From Eubacteriales bacterium (GTDB taxonomy: Bacteria; Bacillota; Clostridia; Oscillospirales; CAG-272): a stretch of DNA of 64,000 nt. Location: assembly GCA_045632925.1 (NCBI GenBank), contig JAZQXP010000057.1, positions 67,447 through 131,446 on the forward strand. The letters run 5' to 3'. Under the pieces are notes generated by a model. It had not been told where the DNA came from. It saw nothing but the letters and a program-made list of their open reading frames with translations, and ran no database searches. The position numbers and the translations under genes are program-made. Positions 6,310 to 63,378 of this stretch are shown piece after piece; within the stretch, counting starts at the first letter, position 1; each line of letters opens with the position of its first letter.

Positions 6310-7797
6310 TTATCTGCGGCGGCGGTAGAAGGTGTATCCGAGACCTGCCGCGAGAAGTGCGCCGGGGATGATGAAGATGAGGATCGTTCCCCAAATATTC
6401 GCGTCGATGGCTGTTGTCGTGATGGTCGACTCGGTGATCGCGATGCTCTCAATGTCCGGAAGGACCGAGATATAGTCGCCCGTGAGAACGTTAGCCATGT
6501 TGAAGAGGAGCACAAGGTTTCCGCTTGATGTGCTGGAGATCAGACCCTCGTTGGTGAGAGCCGCAGATGCGACCCAAAGGAGCTTGCCCTTGCCGTCGCT
6601 ACCCTCCGAGATAGCCGAGAGTACCTTCTTGCCCGCCTCGCCGTTCTCGCCCGAATAAGCCTTATCCGAGGTCGTGAGCAGCTCTGTGACGGTATATCCC
6701 TGAGCCTCGCCGACCTTGATAGCCTGTGCGTTCGAGAGGAGGATGAGGTTTCTGTAGGAGGTGAAGGGGGCGGTGATCTCGTGAGTCGAGTTGACGGTGG
6801 GGTAGATGTGACCGGGGAAGTCGGTTACGTGCTTCGAGGAATCGCCTTCGCTTACGGTGCCCGCTTCAAGGGTCATACCGAAGGAGGATGTCAGAGCCAT
6901 AAGATTCTTCATACCGTCCGAATTCTTGTCGGTCATAAGGAAGAGGCTTCCGCCGTTTTCGATATAGGATGCGAGCTTTGCCGCTTCGTCCTTTGTGATA
7001 TCGCTTGTGGGCTTGTTGACGATGATGCAAGCGCAATCCTCGGGGATGCTGTCACCCTCGAGAGCAAGATTTAGCTCGGAATATTCGATTCCGTAATCGG
7101 TGAGAGTCGATGCTACGGTGTCGCCGAAGGTCTCCTCGCCGTGTCCGCTGAGGAGGTAGATCGAGGGGATCGTCTCGGCGCATACGTACTCGATTGCACC
7201 CGTGATGGTGCCGTCGAAGCAATAACCGTCCGCGACGGGATAGATTCCGTATAACTTATACTGATCGTAGATCTCGCTTGCCTCCTCGAGTGAGAGACCG
7301 CTTGCGCCAAGCTCGGTGAAGGCGTAGGTGTAGAGCTCACCCGTGTGGATAACGCGATAGCGATTCGCGCTTTCAACGAGAAGGTAGGTCGACATATAGT
7401 CCGAGGTAGCCTCCTCTGCGAGATCCTCAAATTCGGGATATTTGTCGAGGAATGCGGGATCCTCGAGCGGATCGACGTATTTCAGATTAAGCTTCTGGGA
7501 CATCGATACGTATCTCTCGAGGAAGGATGTGAGCGTGCTGTCCTCGTAGCCGTCGGGAACGACGTAGTAGATCGTGACGTTTTCATCAATGCCCGAGATG
7601 AAGCTCTCGGTCGTGCCGGAGATCTCGTACTGACCCGACGCGGTCGTGTCGAGCATAGTGTGCTTTGCGGGAAGCGAGCCGACGATCATATTGACGACCA
7701 CGAGAACAGCGAGAAGGATCAGAGAAAGAACTACGGAGTAGATTCCGCTCTTGCCGCGTCTGTCAAAGAGGGGCTTTTTATTCATATTGTTATTCAT
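6310..7797 (-). CDS. GldG-family ABC-transporter auxiliary protein
   Basis: 495 aa with N- and C-terminal TM anchors flanking a large external domain. It follows an ABC-2 permease. A GAGGAGG RBS is present. Confidence 0.75.
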   Translation of the reverse strand: MNNNMNKKPLFDRRGKSGIYSVVLSLILLAVLVVVNMIVGSLPAKHTMLDTTASGQYEISGTTESFISGIDENVTIYYVVPDGYEDSTLTSFLERYVSMSQKLNLKYVDPLEDPAFLDKYPEFEDLAEEATSDYMSTYLLVESANRYRVIHTGELYTYAFTELGASGLSLEEASEIYDQYKLYGIYPVADGYCFDGTITGAIEYVCAETIPSIYLLSGHGEETFGDTVASTLTDYGIEYSELNLALEGDSIPEDCACIIVNKPTSDITKDEAAKLASYIENGGSLFLMTDKNSDGMKNLMALTSSFGMTLEAGTVSEGDSSKHVTDFPGHIYPTVNSTHEITAPFTSYRNLILLSNAQAIKVGEAQGYTVTELLTTSDKAYSGENGEAGKKVLSAISEGSDGKGKLLWVASAALTNEGLISSTSSGNLVLLFNMANVLTGDYISVLPDIESIAITESTITTTAIDANIWGTILIFIIPGALLAAGLGYTFYRRRR

Positions 7798-11349: not shown

Positions 11350-12015
11350 ATGACAAAGCAGGAACTTCTCAAATACGCAGACCACACTCTCCTCGCTCCC
11401 ACGGCAACAGAGGCAGAGATCAAGGTCATCTGCGACGACGCAATAAAGTACGAGACCGCATCTGTCTGTATCCCCGCGACCTATATCGCTTTCGCCCGCG
11501 ATTACACTGAGGGCAAGCTCAATCTCTGCACCGTAATCGGCTTTCCTCTCGGCTACAGCACGACCGCTGTCAAGTGCGCGGAGGCTCGCGATGCGATCGC
11601 AAACGGCGCGAATGAGATCGATATGGTTGCAAATATCTGCAATATCAAGAACGGCAGATTCGATCTTGTTGAGGAGGATATCCGCGAGGTCAAGAAAGCC
11701 TGCGGCGATAAGATCCTCAAGGTCATCATCGAGACCTGCCTCCTTACCGACGAGGAAAAGGTAAAGATGTGCAAGATCGTCGGCGCTGCGGGTGCCGATT
11801 ATATCAAGACCTCCACGGGCTTTTCCACCGGCGGAGCTACCCGCGAGGACATCGCTCTCTTTGCCGCAAACGTACCCGAGGGACTTAAGATCAAGGCGGC
11901 GGGCGGTATCCGCTCCTTTGAGGATGCCGAGGCATTTGTAAAGCTCGGCGCATCGAGACTCGGTACCAGCGCGCTTGTCAAGCTGATGAAGGCTGAGGAA
12001 GTAAAGGGCTACTAA
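11350..12015 (+). CDS. deoC: Deoxyribose-phosphate aldolase
   Basis: [35 protein letters not shown] is a class I DERA. The start at 11350 follows a GGAGG RBS. Confidence 0.92.
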
Positions 12016-23416: not shown

Positions 23417-23531
23417 TTCTGTCGGCTTCGCCGAATGATAGTCCGCCATTGGCGGAATGATGATCACGCTTCGCGTGAATGATGATCCGCTGAAGCGGAA
23501 TGAAGGAAGATTTTCGCCGAGGCGAAAATCT
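23417..23531 (+). repeat. Tandem mini-hairpin array: five hairpins separated by ATGATGA-type 7-nt linkers
   Basis: TCGGC-TTC-GCCGA, TCCGCC-ATT-GGCGGA, TCACGC-TTC-GCGTGA, TCCGC-TGAA-GCGGA and AGATTTTCGCC-GAG-GGCGAAAATCT are spaced 20-22 nt apart. The array starts 1 nt after the TGA stop. Confidence 0.85.
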
Positions 23532-24237: not shown

Positions 24238-24273
24238 AAACGCCTCGTCCTTTCGGACGAGGCGTTTTTATTT
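24238..24273 (+). terminator. Rho-independent terminator, probably shared with the convergent minus-strand gene
   Basis: The 10-bp stem CGCCTCGTCC/GGACGAGGCG has a TTTC loop and is followed by TTTTTATTT. Confidence 0.88.
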
Positions 24274-24279
24274 AATGAT

Positions 24280-24338
24280 GATTTTCGCCTCAGCGAAAAT
24301 CTACCTTCATTTTGCATTTTGCATTTTTAATTTTGCAT
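24280..24338 (-). repeat. Heptamer tract (ATGCAAA-type on the minus strand) plus an A/T-clamped cap hairpin, directly after the FAD-oxidoreductase stop
   Basis: The minus strand reads TAA-ATAAATGCAAAATTAAAAATGCAAAATGCAAAATGAAGGTA-GATTTTCGC-TGAG-GCGAAAATC. The cap and its ATGAAGG lead-in closely match 23500-23531. Confidence 0.8.
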
Positions 24339-26216
24339 TTATTTAACGTCTGCCGAGAACAGATGAACCTTACTGCTTCCTCTTGTTTCATCAAATACGA
24401 TGGTGAGCTTCTGTGCCTTAACGCCGAGGGCGATCTTGCGCAGAGAATTACGGTTGTTGGTGTCGGCGAAGATCTCCTTGCCGTCTGCAAGAACGCGGAA
24501 GGATTTGACGAGAGTCTTTGCAACCTTTACGGGAACGAAATCCTTGCCCGTCATAAGCTTCTGCGCGAAGACGCGCATCTTCTTGTTGGGAGTGATCGAC
24601 TTGCGCGAGAAGTCGGGGTCGAAGACGAGACGAAGCTCGGAAAGCTCCTTTTCTTCACCAAAGTCAAACTCGAGCGCATCGCCGATCTCGAGCGTTGCGT
24701 AGTTGACGTTCATTTCCTCGTCGGGACGCTCGATGCCGTTCTGAAGAAGTGCAAGCTCGGATTCGGGGAGATTGATCTTCGCGCTCTTGGTGAGCTCGGG
24801 AATCTCGCGGACGGTGCCGGGGATATAGCAGCCCGCGTCGCGAAGCTTGTCCTGAAGGACCTTGATCTTCTGCTCGTAAACGCCGTGGGGAGTTACGCCG
24901 TCATTAATACAGATCGAAGCAGCGGTACCCATAGCCTGACCGATGAGGGCACAGGTTGCCATAACACGGGTCGAGCTCATTGCGGCGTGGGTCGCGCTGA
25001 TATTTCTACCCGCGAAGAAGAGGTTGTCAACCTCGTGACCGTAGAGCACGCGGTAGGGAATGCCGTAGGGCGAAGGAGCGGGATATAGCTTGGATGCGGG
25101 TGCGCCGCTGAGATAGGAACGGAAGCCCGCGGGGTTGTGGTCGTCCATCGGCCAACCGCCGTAAGCGACTATATCGTCAAACTTTCCGCCCGACTCGATG
25201 TCATTTTCGGTGAGAACGTGCGCGCCGATGTAGCGGCGGCTCTCTCTCTTACCGGGGATACAACCGACCCACTCGAGGGTCCAGTTGGTTGCGTTGTGGT
25301 CGCCGTAGTTCTTGACGTGATCCCAGATGCCGTACGCGATCTTGAGAAGCTCGTCGCGCATTTCCTCGGCATCGTGGATGCTGTCATACTCGCCGCCGAG
25401 CTCGAGCCACCAGAAGTTGGTCTCGCTTGTGCCGAGCTTGTGGGGACGTGCAAGGTACTTGACGTCCTGAACTTTAACGCCGGAAACGCCCGTGCTTGCA
25501 TCGATGATGTTGCCGCTTGCATCCTTGATAAGGTTGAAGTCGTCGTCGGTCTCGAATTTATATGCCCAATCGGGAGCGGTGAAGGGAACGGGCTCGTCGG
25601 TCTCGCGTGCCTGAATGAGGCAGGACATGCCCATGGTCTTTTTGTCTGCAACCTCCTTACCCATAGCCTCGCCGTACTCGGAAGCCGCCTCACGGCCGAC
25701 ACGCCACTTCGCGCCCGAGATGGGAGCGAGGATCGAGTCGCCCGAGCAGTCAGCAAAATAAGTAGCCTTTACGGTGTGCCAGGTGTAGGTCGTCATCTGC
25801 CAAGCGGTGACGGATGTGAGGTGCGACACGCCATCCTTCTCGGTGCGATCGGCGTCACAGCAGGTGGTGTTGAGAAGAAGGGTGATATTCTTCTCAGCCT
25901 TGACCTTCGCCCAGAGCACGTTGTCGAAGGTGGAGGGGATGAGGGTGGGGTTGAGGTAGATATTTTCCTCTTCGATCTCGGAGATGATACCCGTCTCGCG
26001 GTTCTCAAGACCGTGCGCGCCTCTGACCCACATTCTGATCTCGCTCGATGCGTTACCGCCGAGCACGGGTCTGTCCTGGATGAGGACGACCTTTGTGCCT
26101 TCTCTTGCAGCTGCGATAGCGGCACAGAGACCGGTAAGACCGCCGCCGATGATGCAGAGGTCGGTGTTATGTTCAATATGGCGCATGCCGTTTGTTTTAA
26201 TAGTAAGTTCGCTCAT
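24339..26216 (-). CDS. FAD-dependent oxidoreductase (FAD_oxidored family)
   Basis: The N-terminus DLCIIGGGLTGLCAAIAAAREG..LGGNASSE is a Rossmann FAD motif. 625 aa. An AAGGAG RBS is present. Confidence 0.85.
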   Translation of the reverse strand: MSELTIKTNGMRHIEHNTDLCIIGGGLTGLCAAIAAAREGTKVVLIQDRPVLGGNASSEIRMWVRGAHGLENRETGIISEIEEENIYLNPTLIPSTFDNVLWAKVKAEKNITLLLNTTCCDADRTEKDGVSHLTSVTAWQMTTYTWHTVKATYFADCSGDSILAPISGAKWRVGREAASEYGEAMGKEVADKKTMGMSCLIQARETDEPVPFTAPDWAYKFETDDDFNLIKDASGNIIDASTGVSGVKVQDVKYLARPHKLGTSETNFWWLELGGEYDSIHDAEEMRDELLKIAYGIWDHVKNYGDHNATNWTLEWVGCIPGKRESRRYIGAHVLTENDIESGGKFDDIVAYGGWPMDDHNPAGFRSYLSGAPASKLYPAPSPYGIPYRVLYGHEVDNLFFAGRNISATHAAMSSTRVMATCALIGQAMGTAASICINDGVTPHGVYEQKIKVLQDKLRDAGCYIPGTVREIPELTKSAKINLPESELALLQNGIERPDEEMNVNYATLEIGDALEFDFGEEKELSELRLVFDPDFSRKSITPNKKMRVFAQKLMTGKDFVPVKVAKTLVKSFRVLADGKEIFADTNNRNSLRKIALGVKAQKLTIVFDETRGSSKVHLFSADVK

Positions 26217-39945: not shown

Positions 39946-39988
39946 GACATCCTCATCCACCGCGCTTGGCGCGGTGGATGAGGATGTC
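39946..39988. repeat. Isolated perfect long palindrome
   Basis: GACATCCTCATCCACCGCGC-TTG-GCGCGGTGGATGAGGATGTC is a roughly 19-20 bp perfect stem with no flanking T-run. It lies between the two convergent terminators. Confidence 0.9.
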
Positions 39989-44864: not shown

Positions 44865-45036
44865 TTGCGAGTCTGTAGGGGACGGCGCCCTCGACGTCCA
44901 ACTTTGCGAGAGTTATGATCGCGCAAAGCGCGAGTTAAGATCGGCTTGCGCCGAGTTAATATTGCCTTCGGCAAGTTAAGATTCGCCTGCGGCGAAGTTT
45001 AAGGTGAATTTCCTCGCTGAAGCTTCGGAAATTTTC
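44865..45036 (+). repeat. Tandem mini-hairpin array: GTTAAGA-type 7-nt linkers plus a cap hairpin
   Basis: The TTGCGAG direct repeat flanks GGACG..CGTCC. It is followed by TCGCGC-AAA-GCGCGA, TCGGC-TTGC-GCCGA, TTGCC-TTCG-GGCAA, TTCGCC-TGC-GGCGAA and AATTTCC-TCGCTGAAGCTTC-GGAAATT at 20-24 nt spacing. Confidence 0.85.
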
Positions 45037-55872: not shown

Positions 55873-57480
55873 ATGAAAAAACATATCAGAATCCTGACAG
55901 CTTTAATATCCCTTTTGTTTATCCTTCCTCTGTTCGGCTGTACCGGCGGAGAAGGCGAAGTGACTTCAAGCACTCCCGATCCCGAAAATACACCACCTGC
56001 GGTCACCGATGCACCTGAGACCGATGCACCCGAGACCGTTGCACCCGAGACCGTTGCACCCGAGACAGACGCGCCCGAGACAGAGCCTGCAGAGGTTGTT
56101 GACGACGAGTGGACGGCTTTGAGAAAGAAGGCAGAGGGCGAGGGCATCAAGGTCCTCTTTATCGGCGACAGCCTGACTCATTATAACGATATGCCCGTGA
56201 TATTCGAGGCTCTGTGCCGCGCCGCAGGCAAGAAGGTCACCGCCGCCGCACAGACAAAGGGCGGCACGGGTATTGCGATGTACCGCGAGGATGCCGCGCT
56301 CTGGGAGACGTACAGCAAAAGGATCGCTTCGGATAATTGGGACATCATCATTTTTCAGCCCAACCGCAACAATACCGTTATGACCGAATTCTTCCCCTAC
56401 TATCCCTGGAAGGAATACTCCGCGGCAAAGGACGTCGTTGAGCTGATCAAGGCGGCGGGCGCGATTCCTCTTCAGTACTCGAGCTTCGGCGTGAACAAGG
56501 GATATGTTACCCGCGAAGGAAACACCAAGAGAATGTCCAGAATCGAGCATACGAATCTTGTAACCGCATATAATGCAGCAGTTTCCGAAATGCTCGGAAC
56601 CAAGGCTGTTTACGTCGGCGCAACCTTCAATAAGGTCATCGACGAGCATCCGGGCTACGGAATGTATCATACCGACAATTCGCATCCCTCGGCTACGGGA
56701 AGCTATCTTATCGCGTCGGATTTCTATACCGTGATCTTTGGCGAGGCACCCGTAGACGTTGATTTCACCAACGGACTTGACGCCGAAATTGCAAAGACGC
56801 TCCGTGAAGCCTCCGCAATGCTTCTTGATTACGCTCCCACCGAGAAGGCTGAGATCAAGTACGTCGAGGAGGAAAAGAAGGAGAAGGGCACTCTTACCTT
56901 CGGTTCACACGGCTTTACGGGCATTGCCGCAGAGGGAAAGAGCGGAATGTTTGACGTCACCGAGGACAACAAGACCATCAGCTATACCTACAAGAGCGGC
57001 GACGGCATCATATATTCCTTTGCAACTCTCGACGGAAAGCCCGTCTCGGGAAACAGCCTGATCTTTGAGGCTGACGTTACGATCGGAAAGTATTGCGGAA
57101 GCAAAAACCCGACCGCGGGACTTCAGCTTATCGACGAAAAGGGCAAGACCTACCGCCTCTACCTGCGTACTGCGGGCGGAAACATCACGGGTACGGACAG
57201 CTCGACCGCAACCTTCCATATCCGCACAGACCACGACAGCAGTAAGACGCGTACCGATCTCGGAAGCTTCTCGAATAAGGTCAAGCTTCGCCTCGAGGTC
57301 ACACCCGACTCTATGACCCTCTATACCGACGGTCAGATGTATATGAAGATCACTTATGAGGGCACCGAATTCTTTGACGGCACCAAGACCGACAAGATGA
57401 CCTACGACGGCTCCGACGTTCAGCTCGGACTCGTAACCTGCTATGCGGATACGAGATTCGATAACGTGGTGATTAATTAA
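55873..57480 (+). CDS. Lipoprotein with an SGNH/GDSL hydrolase domain and a C-terminal lectin-like domain
   Basis: The lipobox is LFGC. An (APETx)5 linker follows, then the GDSL block VLFIGDSLT. The C-terminal beta-sandwich-like region is unassigned. Confidence 0.75.
   Translation: MKKHIRILTALISLLFILPLFGCTGGEGEVTSSTPDPENTPPAVTDAPETDAPETVAPETVAPETDAPETEPAEVVDDEWTALRKKAEGEGIKVLFIGDSLTHYNDMPVIFEALCRAAGKKVTAAAQTKGGTGIAMYREDAALWETYSKRIASDNWDIIIFQPNRNNTVMTEFFPYYPWKEYSAAKDVVELIKAAGAIPLQYSSFGVNKGYVTREGNTKRMSRIEHTNLVTAYNAAVSEMLGTKAVYVGATFNKVIDEHPGYGMYHTDNSHPSATGSYLIASDFYTVIFGEAPVDVDFTNGLDAEIAKTLREASAMLLDYAPTEKAEIKYVEEEKKEKGTLTFGSHGFTGIAAEGKSGMFDVTEDNKTISYTYKSGDGIIYSFATLDGKPVSGNSLIFEADVTIGKYCGSKNPTAGLQLIDEKGKTYRLYLRTAGGNITGTDSSTATFHIRTDHDSSKTRTDLGSFSNKVKLRLEVTPDSMTLYTDGQMYMKITYEGTEFFDGTKTDKMTYDGSDVQLGLVTCYADTRFDNVVIN
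56011..56085 (+). repeat. Five tandem 15-bp coding repeats (APETD/V linker)
   Basis: GCACC(T/C)GAGACCG(A/T)T repeats five times with drift, in frame within the lipoprotein gene. Confidence 0.9.
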
Positions 57481-57788
57481 GTGCAGAGTGTAGAGTGTAG
57501 AATGCAGAGTTAATGTAATTTTTCTCGCGATGCTCGAAAAATATTTGTGGGATAATTTAATTTGGCACTGATAACACTTCGCTTAGCTATAACATTTAAT
57601 AGCTAAACAAATAACTCGGAAATCAATGAAGATTACTTCAAAGATTTCCGAGCATTTTTTATTTACCAAATTTATTGTTTATCGCAAAACAATAGTTTGC
57701 CAAAGCAAAACATAATTCTTTAACTTCTAATTTCCGAGCTCGCTCGGAAATTATCCTCAACTCTGCATTATGCACTCTGCACTCTGCA
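57481..57788 (+). repeat. Repeat element copy A: inverted heptamer ends plus cap hairpins around an A+T-rich core with a terminator
   Basis: The left end is GTGCAGA GTGTAGA GTGTAGA ATGCAGA GTT plus the hairpin TTTTTC-TCGCGATGCTC-GAAAAA. The right end is the hairpin AATTTCCGAG-CTCG-CTCGGAAATT plus inverted heptamers at 57761-57788. It starts at the first base after the TAA stop. Confidence 0.85.
57615..57660 (+). terminator. Terminator inside element A
   Basis: The stem CTCGGAAATC/GATTTCCGAG is followed by CATTTTTTATTT. Confidence 0.8.
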
Positions 57789-57914
57789 TTTAATTACTCT
57801 CTCCGTCAATTAATCGCAAAAAATCTCCATTTAAGAAAATCTTAATTCGTTTAGCTATTTCTTTTTCATAAAAAGTGTGGTATAATGTACTTAATAAACC
57901 ACAGGAGCGTTAAA

Positions 57915-58610
57915 ATGTACAATATTCTTATATGCGACGATGAGGTAGATATCGTATCCGCGCTGAAAATATATCTTGCGTCCCCCGATCTGAATTTCTT
58001 CACCGCGGGTACGGGCGTCGAGGCGCTTCGTATTCTCGATAAGGAGGAGATCCATCTGATCATCCTTGATATCATGATGCCCGTGATGGACGGTATGACC
58101 GTGGCGGTCAAGATCCGTGAGACAAGCAACGTGCCGATCATCTTCCTTTCCGCCAAGAGTGAGGACAGCGACAAGATCCTCGGTCTCAATATCGGAGCCG
58201 ACGATTACATAACCAAGCCCTTCAATCCGATCGAGGTCTCTGCGAGAGTCCGTTCTCAGTTGAGAAGATATTTCACTCTCGGCGGCTCAAACAAGACCGA
58301 TGACGTCATCAGGAACGGCGGTCTTGAGATCGACAACAGGGAAAAGAGATTTATGCTCGACGGCGAGGAAGTTGCTCTGACGCCGAAGGAGTATGACATC
58401 CTCAAGCTTCTGATGTCGAATCCCGGAAAGGTCTTCTCACCGAGCGAGATCTATACCCTCGTATGGAAGGAGAGCGCGCTGACGGGCGACAATACGGTCG
58501 CGGTGCATATCAGACATCTGCGCGAGAAGATCGAGATCAATCCCGCTGAGCCGAGATACCTCAAGGTCGTCTGGGGTCAGGGATATAAGATCGAGAAGGG
58601 AGTAAGATAA
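57915..58610 (+). CDS. OmpR-family response regulator
   Basis: ILICDDE..LDIMMP (receiver Asp) and a winged-helix C-terminus (LTPKEYDILKLL..RHLREKIE). Confidence 0.93.
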   Translation: MYNILICDDEVDIVSALKIYLASPDLNFFTAGTGVEALRILDKEEIHLIILDIMMPVMDGMTVAVKIRETSNVPIIFLSAKSEDSDKILGLNIGADDYITKPFNPIEVSARVRSQLRRYFTLGGSNKTDDVIRNGGLEIDNREKRFMLDGEEVALTPKEYDILKLLMSNPGKVFSPSEIYTLVWKESALTGDNTVAVHIRHLREKIEINPAEPRYLKVVWGQGYKIEKGVR

Positions 58611-60556
58611 TGAAGGAGAAAAAGGCTCGACGGGGCATCAGCCACAGCATAGCCGCCAAGATCACGGCATTCCTGCTCGCGGTCGTTATGCTATGCCTTA
58701 CTGCCGCTGCGGTCGTCGGCGCGGTCATAATGTTCAGGGCGGAGGTGTATTGGACGAGCCGTGAGGCAAATCTCGACGACGTCTTTTCAATGACCGCATA
58801 TAACGACGCCTATAATATTATGCATTTGCTGATAAGCTCGGAGCACGGCGAGAACAATGCCGACGAGTTTATAAAGTATACGAATATCGGATCGGTCCGG
58901 TCGGAGAGCGCAAATCCCAATTACCGCGAGTATAGCAGGGAGATCTCCGAGGTCGATCAGAGATTCGTTTACACCTATTATTGGCACGTTCAGTATGCCG
59001 AGGACGGTAGCGTTGATCTCTTCCGCTCGATCGGAAACGATTATGACCCCGAGAAATATCCGCCCGAATCGGTCTGCTCGGTTACTGTCGGTATTGCCGC
59101 AAACCGCGTTGAGCTTGACGATTATTTCTGGTACGGCTTGCTCATCGACGTGTTGTACACCTTCCGCTTCTGGATCTATCCTATCGGAGCGGCGGCATTT
59201 CTGTTCGCGCTGATCTCTATTGCCTTCCTTATGGTCTCAGCGGGCAGAAGAAGGGGGATCGACGGCGTTTCGCCAACAGTGCTTACGAATATTCCCTTCG
59301 AGATCCCGACGGCGATATATGCGGCTTTGATGCTTTTCGGAATAATGATCGTTGTCGATATCGGCGGTGACGTCGAGACCGCGATCGCACTTTCGATCTT
59401 CTACGTCGTTGGTATCGTAGCAAGCCTTGTGTGGTTTATGAGCTTTGCGATCCGCGTCAAGCTCGGAACTCTCATTAAAAACACGATAATCTTCCGCCTT
59501 ATGCGCCTTCTTTGGCGTGCGATCCGATTCGTCGGACGCTGTATCGCCACGTTTGTCCGTTCGATCCCGATGATATGGAAGACGCTGATACTTCTTGCAG
59601 CGGTTACCGTCGTTGAGTTTTTCGTGATAGCTCTGACGCATACCGAGATCGACAATATGATGCTCTGGTGGCTGATCGGCAAGCTTGTCGGCGGCGCGGC
59701 GGTCATATATTTCGCGATAATGCTTCGCCGTCTCAAAACGGGCGGACGCAAGATCGCGGACGGCGACCTTGAATATAAGGTCAAAACCGATTCGCTCATT
59801 CTCGACTTGAAGGATCACGGCGAGGATCTGAACCGAATCGGAGAGGGACTTAATCTCGCTGTCGAGGAAAGGATCCGAAGCGAGCGAATGAAGACCGAGC
59901 TTATAACAAACGTCTCGCACGATATCAAAACACCGCTGACCTCGATCATCAATTATTCCGATCTCATCTGCCGCGAAGAATGCGACAACGAAAATATCAA
60001 GGAATATGCATCGGTGCTTCATAATCAATCCGAACGAATGAAGCGGCTTATCGAGGACCTCGTCGAGGCTTCGAAGGCGTCAAGCGGTAATATCGAGATC
60101 GAGCTTGCCGAATGCAATGCCTGCGTTCTCGTATCGCAGGTCTCGGGCGAATACGCTCAGAGACTTTCGGATGCGGGACTCGAGCTCGTCTGCACAGCTC
60201 CCGAGGAGTCGATCAAGATCATGGCGGACGGCAGAAGAATCTGGCGCGTTTTTGATAACCTTATGGGTAATGCGCGCAAATACGCCCTTCCCGGAACGAG
60301 AGTTTACGTCAGCCTAGAGGAAGAGAATGGACAAGCGATATTCAGATTCAAAAATATCTCCCGCGAGGCTCTCTCTCTCGATGCCCGCGAGCTTACCGAG
60401 CGTTTTGTACGCGGTGATGCCTCGAGAAATACGGAGGGCAACGGTCTCGGTCTTTCGATTGCAAAGAGCCTGACCGAGCTCCAGGGCGGAAGCTTTGATA
60501 TTACTGTCGACGGCGACCTCTTTAAGGTCACGCTGACCTTCCCCGCGATCAAATAA
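58610..60556 (+). CDS. Sensor histidine kinase with a large multi-TM N-terminal region
   Basis: The H-box is SHDIKTPLTSI, the N-box is NLMGNARKY and the G-box is GNGLGLSIA. The start overlaps the response-regulator stop. Confidence 0.9.
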   Translation: MKEKKARRGISHSIAAKITAFLLAVVMLCLTAAAVVGAVIMFRAEVYWTSREANLDDVFSMTAYNDAYNIMHLLISSEHGENNADEFIKYTNIGSVRSESANPNYREYSREISEVDQRFVYTYYWHVQYAEDGSVDLFRSIGNDYDPEKYPPESVCSVTVGIAANRVELDDYFWYGLLIDVLYTFRFWIYPIGAAAFLFALISIAFLMVSAGRRRGIDGVSPTVLTNIPFEIPTAIYAALMLFGIMIVVDIGGDVETAIALSIFYVVGIVASLVWFMSFAIRVKLGTLIKNTIIFRLMRLLWRAIRFVGRCIATFVRSIPMIWKTLILLAAVTVVEFFVIALTHTEIDNMMLWWLIGKLVGGAAVIYFAIMLRRLKTGGRKIADGDLEYKVKTDSLILDLKDHGEDLNRIGEGLNLAVEERIRSERMKTELITNVSHDIKTPLTSIINYSDLICREECDNENIKEYASVLHNQSERMKRLIEDLVEASKASSGNIEIELAECNACVLVSQVSGEYAQRLSDAGLELVCTAPEESIKIMADGRRIWRVFDNLMGNARKYALPGTRVYVSLEEENGQAIFRFKNISREALSLDARELTERFVRGDASRNTEGNGLGLSIAKSLTELQGGSFDITVDGDLFKVTLTFPAIK

Positions 60557-60565
60557 GGTGGATAT

Positions 60566-61387
60566 ATGAATGTTCTTGACAAAATGATGAATGCAATAGC
60601 GGCGGAAATGACTCCGCCGCCGGCATACGGTACCTTTCATATAATTCTGATCATCGTCGGTATGACCCTCTGCATTTCGCTTGCTTGGCTCTGTCGAAAA
60701 TTCGACGACAGAAAGAATAAGATCCTGCTGCTTTCCTTCGCGGGCGTTCTGATCGTGAGCGAGATCTTCAAGCAGATCTTCCTCTTTTTCGTTGTCGAGG
60801 AGAACGCGATCTGCTGGGGCGAGTTCCCCTTTCAGATGTGCTCGATGCCGATGTATCTTTGCCCCGTCGCGGTATTGTCGAAGAATGAAAGGATCAGCCG
60901 CGCGGCTTACGGCTTTATGATGTGCTTCAATCTGCTCGGCGGATTTGCGGGCGTTTTTGAGCCCTCGGGAGTCTTTCTCACGCAGGTGCCGCTGACCGTC
61001 CACGCGATCGCTTGGCATTATTCGCTCGTCTTCCTCGCGTTTTACATAATCTTCTCGCACCGCGCGGGAAGCACGAAGCGGGATTATTTCGATATCGTCA
61101 AGCTCTTTGTTGCGCTCTGCTTCGTTGCATTCGTGATCAATACCCTGATCGGTATTACGGTCGGCGCAGAGGTCAATATGTTCTTCGTCGGACCGAATCC
61201 CGCGCCGATAATAGTTTTCAATACGATCGCGCAAAAATTCGGCTGGGCGGCGAGCACGGTGATCTATATACCGATAACCTCGCTTGCGGCGGGAGTGATA
61301 TTTTTGATAAATGCAAAATGCAGAATGCAGAGGGCAGAGGGAGTGCAGAGTGCAGAGTGCAGAGTGCAGAATGCAGAGTTAAGGTAA
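60566..61387 (+). CDS. Polytopic membrane protein (YwaF/TIGR02206-like) whose last roughly 25 codons are the heptamer repeat
   Basis: It has about 7 TM segments. The C-terminus reads KCRMQRAEGVQSAECRVQSAECRVQNAELR, which is translated from the TGCAGAG repeats. Confidence 0.65.
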   Translation: MNVLDKMMNAIAAEMTPPPAYGTFHIILIIVGMTLCISLAWLCRKFDDRKNKILLLSFAGVLIVSEIFKQIFLFFVVEENAICWGEFPFQMCSMPMYLCPVAVLSKNERISRAAYGFMMCFNLLGGFAGVFEPSGVFLTQVPLTVHAIAWHYSLVFLAFYIIFSHRAGSTKRDYFDIVKLFVALCFVAFVINTLIGITVGAEVNMFFVGPNPAPIIVFNTIAQKFGWAASTVIYIPITSLAAGVIFLINAKCRMQRAEGVQSAECRVQNAELR

Positions 61388-61652
61388 ATTTCCTCGCGAT
61401 GCTCGGAAATTGTTCCTTATGATAATTGTATTTCTGCATGATAACCTTTTGTACTGTTCTGAACCGTTGTTTAATAATAAGAAACTCGAGATATAATGAA
61501 GTTTTTTACGCTTCACTGTATCTCGAGTTTTCTATTTGGTTTTTATATGTTTTAGATTAACTAAGGATTATCAGCACAAAATATATTTATTTCGGTATGC
61601 TTTTCGAACAAAGTTCGAAAAGCTTCCATAACTCTGCATTCTGCACTCTGCA
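61309..61652 (+). repeat. Repeat element copy B, homologous to copy A
   Basis: About 10 heptamers (AATGCA.. drifting to TGCAGAG) are followed by AGTTAAGGTA and the hairpin AATTTCC-TCGCGATGCTC-GGAAATT. Next comes a core similar to copy A, then the hairpin CTTTTCGAAC-AAA-GTTCGAAAAG and inverted heptamers at 61632-61652. Confidence 0.85.
61482..61537. terminator. Bidirectional terminator inside element B, serving 60566-61387 and glcK
   Basis: The stem CTCGAGATA/TATCTCGAG has T-rich tails on both strands. Confidence 0.75.
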
Positions 61653-61664
61653 CTCCCTTCGCCT

Positions 61665-62621
61665 TTAACCCAAAAGCGCTGCTCCGATAATTCCCGCTTC
61701 GTTTCCGAGGGTCGCGATGCGGATCTCTGTCGGACGGACGATACCGTTGCCGTAGGTCTCCGCTCTTACCAGGGGAACGAGGGGAGTGAGGAGATTGTCC
61801 TTCTCGTTCGAGATGCCGCCGCCGATAGAAAGGACCTCGGGCTGGAAGATGTTGATAATATTGATAATGCCGCAAGCGAGGTGCTTTATGTAGGAATCAA
61901 CGACCTCTTTTGCCGCCGCGTCGCCTGCGCGCATAGCGTCAAAGGACGTGCGTCCCGATACCTTGCCGCGCTCTGCTGCCATATCCGACATAAGTGTGTT
62001 GATGCCCTTTTCCTTGCATTCGGCGATCTTTTCCTCGGTCATCTTGACAAGAGCCGTTGCAGAGCTGTAAGCCTCCCAGCATCCTTTTCTTCCGCAGGAG
62101 CAGGGTCTGCCGTCGCAAACGATAACGATATGTCCGAGCTCGGCGCCCGCATAGTTAAAGCCGGAATAGATCTTGTCATCTATAACGATGCCGCCTCCGA
62201 CACCCGTACCGAGCGTGATCATGATCGAGCTCTTCGAGCCCTTTGCCGCTCCGACCTTAGCCTCGCCCCAAGCTGCGGCATTGGCGTCGTTTTCAATGGT
62301 TACCTTCGGAACGGGGAATCCCTCCTTGAACTTATCAGCAAGGGGGAAGTTACGGAAGGGAAGGTTATTGGCGTATTCAACTACTCCCGTGTCGTGGTTT
62401 GCAACGCCGGGGCTGGCAATACCTACAGCCTCGATCTCGTCGATGGAGATCTCTGCGTTTTTGATCAGATCGTGGCAAAGCTTTGCCATATCCGCAACGA
62501 TCTCGTCTGCGGGTCTGTGCGCACCCGTGGGAATGCTCTGACGGGAAAGAATAGTTCCTTCATTATTTACAATACCTGCGGCAATATTTGTACCGCCAAG
62601 GTCAACACCGACTCTGTACAT
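61665..62621 (-). CDS. glcK: ROK-family glucokinase
   Basis: VGVDLGGTNIAAG..ENDANAAAWGE..CSCGRKGCWEAY are the ROK zinc-motif sequences. Confidence 0.9.
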   Translation of the reverse strand: MYRVGVDLGGTNIAAGIVNNEGTILSRQSIPTGAHRPADEIVADMAKLCHDLIKNAEISIDEIEAVGIASPGVANHDTGVVEYANNLPFRNFPLADKFKEGFPVPKVTIENDANAAAWGEAKVGAAKGSKSSIMITLGTGVGGGIVIDDKIYSGFNYAGAELGHIVIVCDGRPCSCGRKGCWEAYSSATALVKMTEEKIAECKEKGINTLMSDMAAERGKVSGRTSFDAMRAGDAAAKEVVDSYIKHLACGIINIINIFQPEVLSIGGGISNEKDNLLTPLVPLVRAETYGNGIVRPTEIRIATLGNEAGIIGAALLG

Positions 62622-62657
62622 TTTTTTATTCCTTTCGGATTTGAAGTTGTTGATTAT

Positions 62658-62686
62658 ATTATAAAGTATAAATGCAATTTTGTCAA
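62658..62686 (-). promoter_or_regulatory. glcK promoter
   Basis: The minus strand reads TTGACA, a 17-nt spacer, then TATAAT. Confidence 0.75.
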
Positions 62687-62710
62687 CCGAATTTCTATTT
62701 TTTTAATTGA

Positions 62711-62772
62711 TTTTCTCGCATCGCGATAAAAACTACCTTACTTCTTACCTCTTACCTTTTACCTCTTACCTC
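62711..62772 (-). repeat. Heptamer tract (GAGGTAA-type on the minus strand) plus cap hairpin, directly after the J-protein stop
   Basis: The minus strand reads TGA-TGC-GAGGTAA GAGGTAA AAGGTAA GAGGTAA GAAGTAA GGTAG-TTTTATCGC-GAT-GCGAGAAAA. Confidence 0.85.
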
Positions 62773-62775
62773 GCA

Positions 62776-63378
62776 TCAGCAACAGGGTCCTCCAATGCAA
62801 AGGTTTGCGCAGATGCAGATTCTCAGGCAGTCGCAGAAGCTGTCCGAGCAGTCCGTGTGCGTGGTGTATGTGCCGCCCTGATAGGACGATGTCCTTGCGC
62901 GGAGCTGTTCGCGTGCGGCGCGGTATTCCTCGTTTTCGGGATCGCGTTCGCAGGCAATATCGAAGCATCTGCCCGCGTCGATGATGTTTCCGCGCATCAT
63001 CAGAGTGATTCCGCGGAGATAGTACCATTCCGCGCCGCGCTCGTTCTGCGGAACGGTGGAAAGAACGGCTTCAGCTTCTCGTACACGGCGCGCGTTGATG
63101 TGAACGCGGACTGCAACGTATCTGTCGTCACCTGAGGACGAGGTCTCGTTATAATGCGCACCCCCGTAGTATGAATCCTGCGACTTGCCCGAGCGGATCT
63201 TCTGGATCTCCTCGTATGCGGCGTTGATCTCCTTCATTTTTTCCTCGGCGCGTGCACGCTCGGCGGGATCGGTGAATTTATCTGGGTGGTTTTCACGGGC
63301 GAGCTTTCGGTAAGCCTTTTTGATATCGTCGTCGCTCGTCTCACGGCTTACGCCGAGCACCGAAAAGGGATCTCTCAT
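62776..63378 (-). CDS. J-domain protein with a TPR-like middle region and a Cys-rich C-terminal tail
   Basis: The J domain ([23 protein letters not shown]) carries the HPD motif. The tail is [24 protein letters not shown]. Confidence 0.85.

Follow-up and report, generated by a model that had tools for sequence, protein, structure and literature searches.

A probable REP/REPIN-like family of palindromic cassettes joined to heptamer arrays at gene ends in uncultured Clostridia

Copy A, the element described here, is probably one member of a multi-copy family of palindromic, REP/REPIN (BIME)-like cassettes in uncultured, spore-forming, gut-type Clostridia (Eubacteriales MAGs). On the best reading of the evidence, this family is new to Clostridia. 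The conserved inverted part of the element is a tag followed by an imperfect hairpin, an architecture of the REP/REPIN kind rather than that of a DDE-type MITE. To our knowledge, nearly all known repeats of the REP/REPIN type come from Proteobacteria and a few other phyla, a range that a dense and structured family in uncultured gut-type Clostridia widens. The family also joins two separate puzzles, namely tagged palindromic repeats and an unexplained excess of 7-base microsatellites at gene ends. Its cassettes carry predicted terminators of ordinary housekeeping genes, and in at least one protein, TMEM164, they alter the C-terminal tail. The clade sequence examined comprises the window (the whole 64-kb stretch of DNA analysed), the related loci L001-L014 and L135-L138, and eleven short metagenome contigs.

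Anatomy of copy A

Copy A lies behind an SGNH/GDSL-like lipoprotein gene (535-aa product, identical to P0055). Its order is heptamers, tag, imperfect hairpin and an A+T-rich core with a two-way terminator, followed by the mirror image of hairpin, tag and heptamers. Each item that a first-pass annotation had listed for it was found in the sequence, including the four left heptamers that begin at the base directly 3' of the TAA. Two coordinates required correction. The right hairpin, placed at 57729-57752, is a perfect 12-bp stem at 57728-57753, and the right inverted heptamers, placed at 57761-57788, shift to 57762-57789 in register. The element is a 309-bp stretch ending at 57789, rather than one of 308 bp ending at 57788. 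Its features are the following:

57478-57480, plus strand: TAA stop codon of the SGNH/GDSL-like lipoprotein gene (gene 55873-57480), with the first heptamer at the next base
57481-57508, plus strand: left heptamer array GTGCAGA GTGTAGA GTGTAGA ATGCAGA
57509-57518, plus strand: left tag GTTAATGTAA (family consensus GTTAAGGTAA or ATGAAGGTAG)
57519-57541, plus strand: left arm hairpin TTTTTCTCGC-GAT-GCTCGAAAAA with a 2x2 TC/TC internal loop (43.3 bits with model R1), alternatively written TTTTTC-TCGCGATGCTC-GAAAAA
57542-57614, unstranded: left half of the A+T-rich core, with a GATAAT(T) box at 57551-57556, a TGATAAC box and a small hairpin at 57578-57611
57615-57660 (stem 57615-57652), unstranded: central hairpin with U-rich runs on both strands, a predicted bidirectional intrinsic terminator, with CATTTTTTATTT directly 3' of the stem
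57661-57727, unstranded: right half of the core, an imperfect mirror of the left half (z = 5.6)
57728-57753, minus strand: right arm hairpin TAATTTCCGAGC-TC-GCTCGGAAATTA, the perfect 12-bp stem (-13.5 kcal/mol; 34.8 bits)
57752-57789, minus strand: right tag and array, read on the minus strand as ATGCAGA GTGCAGA GTGCATA ATGCAGA and then tag GTTGAGGATA

The core has 28% G+C against 52% for the window. The whole element forms a single long foldback (-67.9 kcal/mol, z = -10.2), and the two elements folded gave z = -10 and -18. At up to two mismatches, GTGYAGAGTGYAGA has 14 matches against 0.59 expected, all within copy A or the second doublet, copy B. The outer end of the right array is flanked by TTAA (57790-57793), and no gene ends at that point. 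The sole minus-strand ORF near the right arm, 57866-58189, is antisense inside a response-regulator gene with Pfam support, and 57790-57914 is the promoter region of that gene. No minus-strand gene adjoins the right arm, as originally reported. The proposal that the inverted arrangement is intrinsic to the element, and not the product of two convergent 3' UTRs, gains support from the recurrence of doublets with a gene-less arm, namely copy A in four genomes, L001, L093 and L123. A type I toxin-antitoxin system or small peptide was also considered and rejected; the only ORF of copy A (38 aa) has an array-internal start and is neither hydrophobic nor conserved.

A recurrent arm in the window and its relatives

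The building block of the family is an arm that usually opens with a TAA. A heptamer array comes next, then a tag (GTTAAGGTAA or ATGAAGGTAG, in many cases with GTAG or GTAA as its last bases) and finally the hairpin ATTTCC-TC-GC nnn GC-TC-GGAAAT. Arms stand singly behind genes or as inverted pairs, tags outside, around a terminator, and some pairs additionally enclose a mirror-symmetric A+T-rich core. The resulting elements are non-coding and span about 130-370 bp. A covariance model of the arm recovered 8 distinct arms in the window, the copy B doublet included, and 13 further arms in 118 kb of relatives, and dozens more occur in related MAGs and metagenome contigs. Copies beyond the element first noted, on which its interpretation as a dispersed repeat depended, are therefore present both inside and outside the window. 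The remaining arms of the window are listed here:

61310-61655, unstranded: copy B, the second full doublet, between convergent TMEM164-family and ROK genes
61310-61377: copy B left array, translated as the TMEM164 tail
61378-61387: copy B left tag, containing the TMEM164 stop codon (61385-61387)
61388-61410: copy B left hairpin
61485-61531: copy B terminator (-26.3 and -24.7 kcal/mol on the two strands, U-rich tails)
61599-61623: copy B right hairpin, with the right tag at 61624-61632 and the right array at 61633-61655, beside the ROK stop codon (61665-61667)
62711-62775, minus strand: single arm behind a DnaJ-domain gene (stop 62776-62778), with TGC, GAGGTAA x5, GGTAG and the hairpin TTTTTATCGC-GAT-GCGAGAAAA
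24281-24338, minus strand: single arm behind an FAD-oxidoreductase gene (stop 24339-24341), with an ATGCAAA-type array whose first base is directly 3' of the TAA, tag ATGAAGGTAG and hairpin ATTTTCGC-TGAG-GCGAAAAT
23417-23530, plus strand: variant arm in which four units of a G+C-rich mini-hairpin plus AATGATGAT (21-22 nt period) replace the heptamers, with tag AATGAAGGAAG and hairpin ATTTTCGCC-GAG-GCGAAAAT
44893-45031, plus strand: variant arm located in a divergent promoter region instead of behind a stop codon (27.1 bits, E = 0.005), with four units of a mini-hairpin plus AGTTAAGAT, then AGTTTAAGGTGAA and TTTCCTCGCTGAAGCTTCGGAAA

Because this last arm sits between divergent promoters, not all copies can have a role in a 3' UTR.

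An alignment of 38 distinct arms defines stems of 7-12 bp and loops of 2-5 nt. In 9 of the 38, the motif GTAG precedes the hairpin by 0-3 nt; others have GTAA, GGAAG or GATAA, and GTAA and GAAG are commoner. Stem pair 4 covaries (C-G in 24 arms, U-A in 14, no broken cells), a pairing statistic that is circular in part because the script that selected the arms demanded a hairpin. Several compensated variants exist for the top of the stem. Of the 38 arms, 25 retain the TC/TC internal loop, though as RNA this hairpin folds weakly (-4.2 to -6.7 kcal/mol, z = -0.7 to -1.8). The absence of G-U pairs was discarded as an argument for a DNA-level role, since the same script barred G-T pairs.

Six doublets align end to end, and all six share an invariant GATAAT(T) box. 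Interiors were compared by z-score, percent identity being uninformative for these A+T-rich cores (shuffled baseline about 74%). With the arms excluded, homology reaches z = 5.9 between types A and B, 10.8 between A and G, and 26-29 within type B. Cores of type B are dispersed at non-orthologous loci (window, L002, L004 and L027; z = 22-29), one core type resembles another only weakly away from the conserved boxes, and the left and right halves of doublet interiors mirror each other. Compact doublets without a core occur in L011, L013 and L082. A pattern search with the GAT loop fixed returned 3 genome loci and no metagenome or viral contigs, and relaxing the loop gave more than 120 metagenome loci, mostly in unrelated contexts. 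Rfam gave no match at gathering score across the whole window and, for 57300-62900 at E up to 5, one match judged spurious. BLAST against plasmid and phage collections yielded no match to the element.

Period-7 arrays next to stop codons

In 129 kb of clade sequence, 15 tandem arrays have a period of 7, against at most 2 for any other period. Most arms have the array starting 0-6 nt past a stop codon. Among the 28 arms behind a credible ORF, about 11 have an array that begins at the base after TAA, and in about 6 more the ORF terminates inside the array or tag, as it does in all TMEM164 orthologues. The unit differs by locus, as in the single arms with GAGGTAA or ATGCAAA behind single genes, and even within a single element, as in L004 and L137, where the left arm has GTGCAGA and the right arm TGCTAGT. 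Such variation among loci and arms argues that the heptamers are not classical transposase-binding inverted repeats. In L007, heptamer arrays occur without any hairpin.

Over 6.4 kb compared between the window and L003, indels of at least 5 nt are found only in arrays or at their edges (+7 and +14 within arrays, 5 nt at an array boundary). At the level of sequence, the arrays are shown to behave as slippage-prone microsatellites that change in length while their unit turns over. They form a hypervariable spacer between stop codon and hairpin, not a set of recognition repeats. The window units GTGCAGA, GTGTAGA, ATGCAAA and GAGGTAA contain no G3 tract, and GGGCAGA appears in some metagenome copies only. 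The repeats also break short-read assemblies, as in contig L135, which ends inside an array, and cause over-extended ORF calls.

Exchange of cassettes between sister species

At third codon positions, the window and L138 (species 1) are 94-98% identical, and L003, L004 and L137 (species 2) 90-96%; across the species boundary the value is about 80%. The cassette cores are 98-100% identical between species. Type A matches at 219 of 221 positions between the window and L003, where the L003 comparison at copy A lacks the left flank of the element, and type B at 247 of 251 positions in the same pair. Type G is identical between L138 and L137 (293/293), within flanks whose third codon positions are about 20% divergent. 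The A site holds a different cassette type in L137 and L004, as does the B site in L138 and L137. This comparison shows entire doublets behaving as cassettes: at fixed intergenic sites they are acquired, lost or swapped, both inside one species and between sister species. Intact exchange between species about 20% apart at third codon positions implies that the cassettes mark, and may drive, gene flow and 3'-end variation.

Third-position identity of the ROK gene beside copy B is likewise unusually high between the two species, at 88-93%, so ordinary homologous recombination could carry the cassettes. The high identity of copy B was not taken as evidence of purifying selection, the neighbouring ROK gene being unusually similar too and other genomes having a different cassette at the site. 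An invertible-promoter switch was likewise set aside; the orientation of type A is the same in all four genomes that carry it, and the core itself is mirror-symmetric. Empty sites in relatives, which the first-pass annotation had called for, were found in a qualified form. The more distant relatives L011 and L012 are element-free at the copy-A site, but an unrelated plain terminator stands there, replaced rather than interrupted in the filled site. L008 was dismissed as a clean empty site, as it retains a terminator homologous to the element centre and degenerate heptamer-like bases.

Predicted termination and a candidate route of movement

The terminator hairpin proposed at 57615-57660 is supported by folding (-20.0 kcal/mol on the plus strand, -24.5 kcal/mol on the minus strand, a U-rich run after each, z about -8). 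In copies A and B alike, folding gives the stable G+C-containing hairpin and U run of an intrinsic terminator on both strands. A simple consensus terminator scan listed nothing and so missed both terminators. Each cassette would therefore be predicted to supply a terminator for its flanking gene or genes, and may often provide the stop codon or last residues of the upstream protein.

The tag and its conserved imperfect hairpin could serve as the recognition site of a trans-acting protein. The covarying stem, and a TC/TC internal loop retained in a hairpin of low RNA stability, speak for such a role. The most plausible candidate would be a single-strand Y1/HUH transposase (RAYT or IS200-like), and homologous recombination after gene flow may be an alternative vehicle for exchange. 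Pfam lists and scans revealed no RAYT, IS200-like or other transposase in any flank (window, L001-L014, L135-L138, eleven metagenome contigs).

Competing interpretations

The first-pass annotation had read copy A as a MITE with microsatellite-like terminal inverted repeats. In its classical form, that is, a deletion derivative of a DDE insertion sequence with heptamer arrays as terminal inverted repeats, a target-site duplication and a parent transposase acting in trans, this reading is quite improbable. Several of its elements stand: copy A spans about 300 bp without an ORF, the family stays within 130-370 bp and lacks coding capacity, the inverted ends are 74-100% complementary, copies with mirror-symmetric interiors are dispersed over non-orthologous sites, whole doublets replace one another, and L011 and L012 have a plain terminator in place of the element. 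What does not stand is the role of the heptamers, because it is the tag and hairpin that are inverted and conserved, whereas the outermost heptamers differ between copies and between ends, even within one element (L004, L137), vary by slippage, and exist without the element in L007. Single arms are common, and the ancestral terminator was replaced in the filled site, not merely interrupted. TTAA lies at both sides of copy A, yet it is palindromic and absent around copy B, L001 and L004, where no duplication can be defined; no consistent target-site duplication emerged at copies A, B, L001, L004 and L007. The partner transposase or recombinase sought was not found in the flanks of the window, related loci and metagenome contigs examined, nor was a parent insertion sequence in those loci. 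Similarly doubtful is the idea that tag-hairpin and heptamer array form an undescribed module that marks ORF boundaries, also at 5' ends in other lineages, and is moved or rewritten by a putative recombinase with the arrays as attachment sites. Arrays made or used by a recombinase, instead of produced through passive slippage, would explain why they start exactly at TAA even where no gene ends, and the cassettes would then add a level of termination and translation control that can move and be exchanged.

Two further interpretations place the function in RNA. A selected 3'-end module, in which the heptamers act as a platform for an RNA-binding protein or as a ribosome spacer, the hairpin as a processing or stability signal ahead of the terminator, and spread results from selection and recombination, is unlikely but accounts for several observations. 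Arms are mostly sense-oriented behind the upstream gene, starting at or a few bases past the stop codon, and they persist at TMEM164/ROK gene ends in L011, L012 and L013, whose SGNH proteins are 66-68% identical to that of the window. Stem covariation agrees with it, and another lineage has the same hairpin with similar heptamers directly upstream of start codons. In those copies, the only Shine-Dalgarno-like bases lie in the 3' half of the hairpin, with GTACAGA-type heptamers alongside, and the hairpin would sequester the ribosome-binding site. Against such a module, the units of one genome (GTGCAGA, GAGGTAA, ATGCAAA) vary too much for a single sequence-specific binder, the hairpin form seen most often has little thermodynamic stability, no upstream gene exists for the right arms of copy A, L001 and L093 or for 44893-45031, and identical cassettes in diverged flanks with alternative types at one site are the behaviour of mobile or exchanged DNA. 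Very improbable is the proposal that the long cores are small-RNA genes, with a GATAAT -10-like box on each side, transcripts of about 100 nt running into the shared terminator, and arms as packaging. It draws on the invariance of GATAAT(T) in the six aligned doublets, its extension by TGn in several copies, the sites TGTTATAAT, TGTGATAAT and TGCGATAAT in L012, L128 and L078, a minus-strand promoter-like site at 57703-57674, and the near-identity of cores between species. A promoter scan, however, found no more sites than in shuffled sequence, Rfam offered no credible match even at E up to 5, compact doublets lack the core, core types diverge outside the conserved boxes, and a conserved small ORF is absent. 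The REP/REPIN-like reading remains the preferred one.

Comparison with known repeat systems

By description only, the cassettes resemble ERIC, Correia/CREE, RUP and BOX elements, which are non-coding, 100-350 bp long, palindromic throughout, intergenic, co-transcribed with neighbours, variable in presence at orthologous sites, and able to provide terminators or RNA-processing sites. In those elements the terminal inverted repeats are defined, a TA or comparable duplication is usual, and for some a parent insertion sequence is known. The Clostridia family, by contrast, ends in variable microsatellites, shows no duplication and commonly occurs as single arms.

Heptamer repeats offer a second parallel. 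Over-represented intergenic heptamers have been described in Xanthomonas (GGGAATC) and in Nostoc and Calothrix (GGGGAYT and STRR), those of Xanthomonas and Nostoc on the coding strand and no more than 50 bp from stop codons (PMC4692102). TAACTGA repeats occur in Beggiatoaceae, Cyanobacteria and Bacteroidetes (PMC4679880). The likeness includes a period of exactly 7, strong over-representation relative to other periods, intergenic positions 0-50 nt from ORF boundaries on the coding strand with some overlap of stop codons, occasional inversion, and variation in length and sequence between close relatives. The start-codon-adjacent hairpin and heptamers of the other lineage recall the TAACTGA repeats in particular (PMC4679880). 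These known repeats differ in having one dominant unit per genome and have not been described as joined to a conserved tag and hairpin or to a larger palindromic cassette. G-tracts set the systems apart as well, since most Clostridia units (GTGCAGA, ATGCAAA, GAGGTAA) cannot form G-quadruplexes.

The closest relationship is with REP, REPIN and BIME sequences. REPs are defined as stem-loops of 20-40 bp, with degenerate GYAG, GTRG and GTMG tags accepted, and the superfamily has a cognate RAYT (Y1/HUH) that is usually single-copy and repeat-flanked (Di Nocera et al. 2013). Clostridia are among the bacteria that carry Group 1 RAYTs (PMC5581495); the flanks examined contained no RAYT. Further differences lie in the host, as the survey of GTAG-tagged REPs includes no Firmicutes (PMC3733652), in the hairpin foot, which is A+T-rich (ATTTCC...GGAAAT) here and G+C-rich in REPs, in the heptamer microsatellite or 21-22-nt mini-hairpin array always found outside the tag, and in the terminator and symmetric core of about 190 bp that many doublets enclose. 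GTAG-tagged REPs have 6-13 bp stems with mismatches and 2-3 nt loops, and occur downstream of ORFs as singlets and head-to-head dimers whose termini often provide a stop codon (PMC3733652). The Clostridia arms share this short imperfect stem-loop with its compensated stem variants, and the position and unpaired state of their tag, ending in GTAG or GTAA at one side, fit REPs, with the tag sequence fitting in part. They likewise exist both singly and in inverted, head-to-head pairs spaced 20-200 bp apart. These lie between genes that run in one direction or converge, mostly just 3' of ORFs, their termini can supply the stop codon, and their density, with 8 arms in the 64-kb window and 13 in the 118 kb from relatives, is in keeping with REP-like repeats.

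Anatomy of copy A

Sequence reading bears out the layout proposed in the first-pass annotation, namely a TAA, heptamers, hairpins, a core and inverted heptamers. Copy A lies behind the gene of an SGNH/GDSL-like lipoprotein of 535 aa, identical to protein P0055.

Features of copy A
57478-57480, plus strand: TAA stop codon of the SGNH/GDSL-like gene
57481-57508, plus strand: left array GTGCAGA GTGTAGA GTGTAGA ATGCAGA, its first base directly after the TAA
57509-57518, plus strand: left tag GTTAATGTAA
57519-57541, plus strand: left hairpin TTTTTCTCGC-GAT-GCTCGAAAAA
57615-57652: central hairpin, then CATTTTTTATTT
57728-57753: right hairpin, perfect 12-bp stem
57789-57752, minus strand: right array and tag, ATGCAGA GTGCAGA GTGCATA ATGCAGA GTTGAGGATA

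The core has a G+C content of 28%, against 52% for the window, and the full-length foldback reaches -67.9 kcal/mol (z = -10.2). Folding agrees with the good terminator described in the core: the central hairpin reaches -20.0 and -24.5 kcal/mol on the two strands, with U-rich tails both ways, and is predicted to be a good bidirectional terminator. A simple consensus terminator scan did not pick it up. The right hairpin is real, although its extent, given as a 10-bp stem at 57729-57752, required correction. The heptamer pattern matches 14 times in the window (0.59 expected), always within copy A or copy B, a second element at 61310-61655. As had been stated, no credible minus-strand gene adjoins the right arm; the sole ORF there is antisense within a Pfam-supported response-regulator gene. 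Logan contig L135 stops at 1764-1789, within the heptamer array directly after the SGNH stop codon. Because such repeats interrupt short-read assembly, MAGs will show too few copies.

The arm as repeating unit

Inspection of the 130 nt 3' of each window stop codon revealed arms behind further genes, with the layout of the copy A arm and different heptamers. The repeating unit is the arm (array, tag and hairpin), not the doublet, in which two inverted arms enclose a terminator.

Further arms of the window
62775-62711, minus strand: DnaJ-domain gene; TGA TGC, five GAGGTAA units, GGTAG, TTTTTATCGC-GAT-GCGAGAAAA
24338-24281, minus strand: FAD-oxidoreductase gene; TAA, ATGCAAA-type units, ATGAAGGTAG, ATTTTCGC-TGAG-GCGAAAAT
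23417-23530 and 44893-45031: two variant arms without heptamers

The array of the variant arms consists of four 21-22 nt units, each built of a G+C-rich mini-hairpin and either AATGATGAT or AGTTAAGAT. The hairpin at 24281-24300 is common to two convergent genes (24240-24300). On the minus-strand side an ATGCAAA array and a GTAG tag precede it; on the plus-strand side an ordinary terminator does, together with AATGATG, which is the spacer motif found in the variant arms.

Further copies, proposed earlier as a check, are present. R1, a covariance model that covers tag and hairpin and rests on 38 distinct arms, found 8 distinct arms in the window and 13 in 118 kb of relatives, with no arm in the related loci L008 or L136. 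Period 7 dominates the tandem repeats of the clade, with 15 arrays against at most two of any other period in 129 kb.

The stem covaries. At pair 4, 24 arms have C-G and 14 have U-A, and none of the 38 has a broken pair, a statistic that is partly circular because the arm-finding script accepted only arms with a hairpin and with Watson-Crick pairing at the stem foot; the lack of G-U pairs carries no meaning for the same reason. Compensated upper-stem forms are CGC/GCG, CGAAC/GTTCG, CCGAGC/GCTCGG, CCGCGC/GCGCGG and CCGCCC/GGGCGG. A 2x2 TC/TC internal loop is present in 25 of the 38 arms, and this commonest form has little stability as RNA (-4.2 to -6.7 kcal/mol, z = -0.7 to -1.8). The hairpin is hence interpreted as a site recognised by its sequence or shape, not as an exonuclease block, and tag plus hairpin as a putative target of protein recognition.

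The doublet is a unit as well. Copies A and B and the related loci L001, L002, L004 and L007 can be aligned over their whole length. With arms left out, interiors are alike at z = 5.9 (A-B) and 10.8 (A-G), and B-type interiors at non-orthologous loci (window, L002, L004) at z = 22-29; similarity was judged by z, raw identity being uninformative at about 74% in shuffled A+T-rich sequence. The left half of the interior mirrors the right (z = 3.7-8.6). L001 has near-perfect inverted ends of 60 nt, hairpin included, and folds at -110.7 kcal/mol (z = -18.4). Gene-less arms recur in doublets (copy A in four genomes, L001, L093, L123), and the inversion thus belongs to the element, as first suggested.

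Related hairpins and repeats

Six metagenome contigs (L132, L124, L121, L108, L090 and L060; metagenomes Ga0265297 and Ga0172380) carry an arm-type imperfect hairpin 1-2 nt 5' of the ATG of ordinary genes. It reads TTTCCGAGC-GAA/GTA-GCGAGGAAA (for example L090, around 40-150); its 3' half contains GAGGAAA, and no other Shine-Dalgarno-like stretch is present. Immediately 5' of the hairpin come heptamers of the TCTGTAC type (GTACAGA in reverse complement), and farther upstream an inverted array. One downstream product begins MSKYIFVTGGVVSSLGKGIT, which we take to be the start of CTP synthase (PyrG). In this other lineage the module thus has a counterpart in the 5' UTR.

The window and L007 share a second palindromic repeat, G+C-rich and unrelated to the first: CATCCTCATCCACCGC...GCGGTGGATGAGGATG, at 39948-39986 in the window and at 16778-16814 in L007. 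The sites are intergenic and non-orthologous (chance expectation 0.03), and the repeat probably represents a further REP-like family of the clade. L092 (2308-2472) and L127 (about 11431-11550) hold tandem 48-nt units, each of which includes the hairpin TTTCCTCGCTCCGCTCGGAAA and GAACCTGCTGCGCGCAGAACCTTG. A recurring ATAAGAACC-hairpin-GAACCTTG motif stands beside a TTTCCTCGCTCCGCTCGGAAA-type hairpin in many other metagenome contigs. All these contigs are of unrelated lineages.

Stop codons and heptamer arrays

About 28 arms sit behind a credible same-strand ORF. The array begins at the base after the TAA in about 11; in about 6 the ORF enters the array and stops in it or in the tag, and in about 6 a gap of 3-6 nt separates the two. 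Some arrays have a TAA before them even though no gene ends there (right end of copy A, TTAA/ATGCAGA; left end of L002, upstream of spoIIGA), and the TAA therefore looks like part of the outer edge of the element, or of its target. In Xanthomonas and Nostoc, coding-strand heptamer repeats have been reported 0-50 nt from stop codons (PMC4692102).

All TMEM164 orthologues end within the element. The G-type allele, L011, L013 and L008 keep RLSxLGRRxKK, the native tail; in the B-type allele array-encoded LINAKCRMQ... takes its place. The last 10-25 residues are array-encoded and wholly different between cassette alleles (61300-61387; L138 15420-15476; ...LINAKCRMQRAEGVQSAECRVQNAELR versus ...KLSGLGRRMLKKCKVKSGK), and gene callers will give differing lengths for the two.

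The arrays evidently slip. The window and L003 are 93.3% identical over 6.4 kb, and their indels of at least 5 nt all lie in arrays (+7, +14) or at an array boundary (5 nt). Unit number in the DnaJ array is 5, 3 and 6 in three close genomes. The start of the tag mimics the local heptamer (GTG... with GTTAAGG, ATG... with ATGAAGG), and where the unit is GAGGTAA or AAGGTAA it is all but identical with the tag; the arrays thus look as if slippage, starting from the tag, had produced them. Their composition is variable: L004 and L137 have GTGCAGA left and TGCTAGT right within one element, L002 (B-type core) has GGGCAAA left and no right array, and in L007 the TMEM164 and ROK gene ends are ATGCAAA arrays, both without an arm hairpin. 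Metagenome copies include GTGCAAA, GGGCAGA, GGGTAGA, GGGCAAA, AAGGTAA and TTGCTAG.

Cassette exchange at sites A and B

Synteny is kept around both sites, and third-codon-position identity defines two sister species.

Third-position identity
Window versus L138 (both species 1): 94-98%
L003, L004 and L137 mutually (species 2): 90-96%
Species 1 versus species 2: about 80%

Contents of site A (SGNH-response-regulator interval) and site B (TMEM164-ROK interval)
Site A, window and L138 (species 1): type A
Site A, L003 (species 2): type A, 219/221 identical to the window
Site A, L137 and L004 (species 2): B-type core, TGCTAGT right array
Site A, L007: third type
Site A, L008: homologous terminator and degenerate heptamer-like bases only
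Site A, L011 and L012: unrelated plain terminator, spacer 128-137 nt
Site A, L013 (JGI metagenome contig), about 7300-7625: unrelated G+C-rich palindromic insertion
Site B, window (species 1) and L003 (species 2): type B, 247/251 identical
Site B, L138 (species 1) and L137 (species 2): type G, GTGAAAA arrays, 293/293 identical
Site B, L012: long-core doublet
Site B, L011 and L013: compact doublets, arms plus simple terminator, about 130 nt

L011 and L012 provide the element-free sites looked for in relatives. The L013 insertion, with long G+C-rich inverted ends (GCGCGCTCTCCTTTCACCGCTTCCGCGGTCCCCCTTCCTCCCGGAGGAAGG...) and an A+T-rich centre, is another palindromic element family in the same intergenic slot.

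Identical or near-identical cassettes in flanks about 20% apart at third codon positions, together with differing cassettes in close relatives, indicate that whole cassettes were recently exchanged. An element-specific step may carry this exchange, in keeping with the fall of window-L003 identity to 92% directly right of copy A. Ordinary homologous recombination after gene flow may also do so, in keeping with the unusual likeness of the ROK gene adjoining site B between species (88-93% at third positions).

This kinase gene (61665-62621) compares with about 80% for its neighbours, and reaches 92% within species 2, no higher than between species. The pattern points to recurrent recombination between the species, or to strong constraint on codons, beside copy B. 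The SGNH gene (55873-57480; 10001-11600 in L004 and L137) is hypervariable: L137 and L004 share 83% nucleotide and 70% third-position identity in it, against 90-94% at third positions in other genes. It contains a 15-nt tandem repeat at 56005-56081, with five copies of ACCGATGCACCCGAG, and its product forms two allele groups ending ...VVIN or ...VVIK.

Comparison with known repeat families

Two marks of mobility proposed for checking did not appear: no transposase or recombinase was seen in any flank inspected, where the neighbours are housekeeping genes, and no target-site duplication was definable. Rfam gave no matching family, and plasmid and phage collections no match. The earlier MITE reading holds in part: the element is a real, mobile-looking palindromic unit, but the heptamers do not appear to be its inverted repeats. 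Single arms and the lack of a duplication favour a mechanism like that of REPs over that of a DDE-type MITE. Mobilisation would then proceed via a single strand (Y1/HUH). Group 1 RAYTs, the transposases of such repeats, are reported from Clostridia (PMC5581495).

The resemblance to REP/REPIN/BIME repeats (PMC3733652) comprises a tag often ending in GTAG or GTAA, a partial fit in sequence, with a short imperfect hairpin, singlets and inverted doublets with tags outside, and placement downstream of ORFs with supply of stop codons, as reported for REP termini (PMC3733652). Unlike those repeats, the cassette family occurs in a different host phylum, has an A+T-rich hairpin foot, always carries an array of heptamers or mini-hairpins beyond the tag, and encloses a terminator and symmetric core. 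Given these shared features and four differences, we call the family REPIN-like: it would work like a REPIN and is a candidate member of the RAYT-mobilised family.
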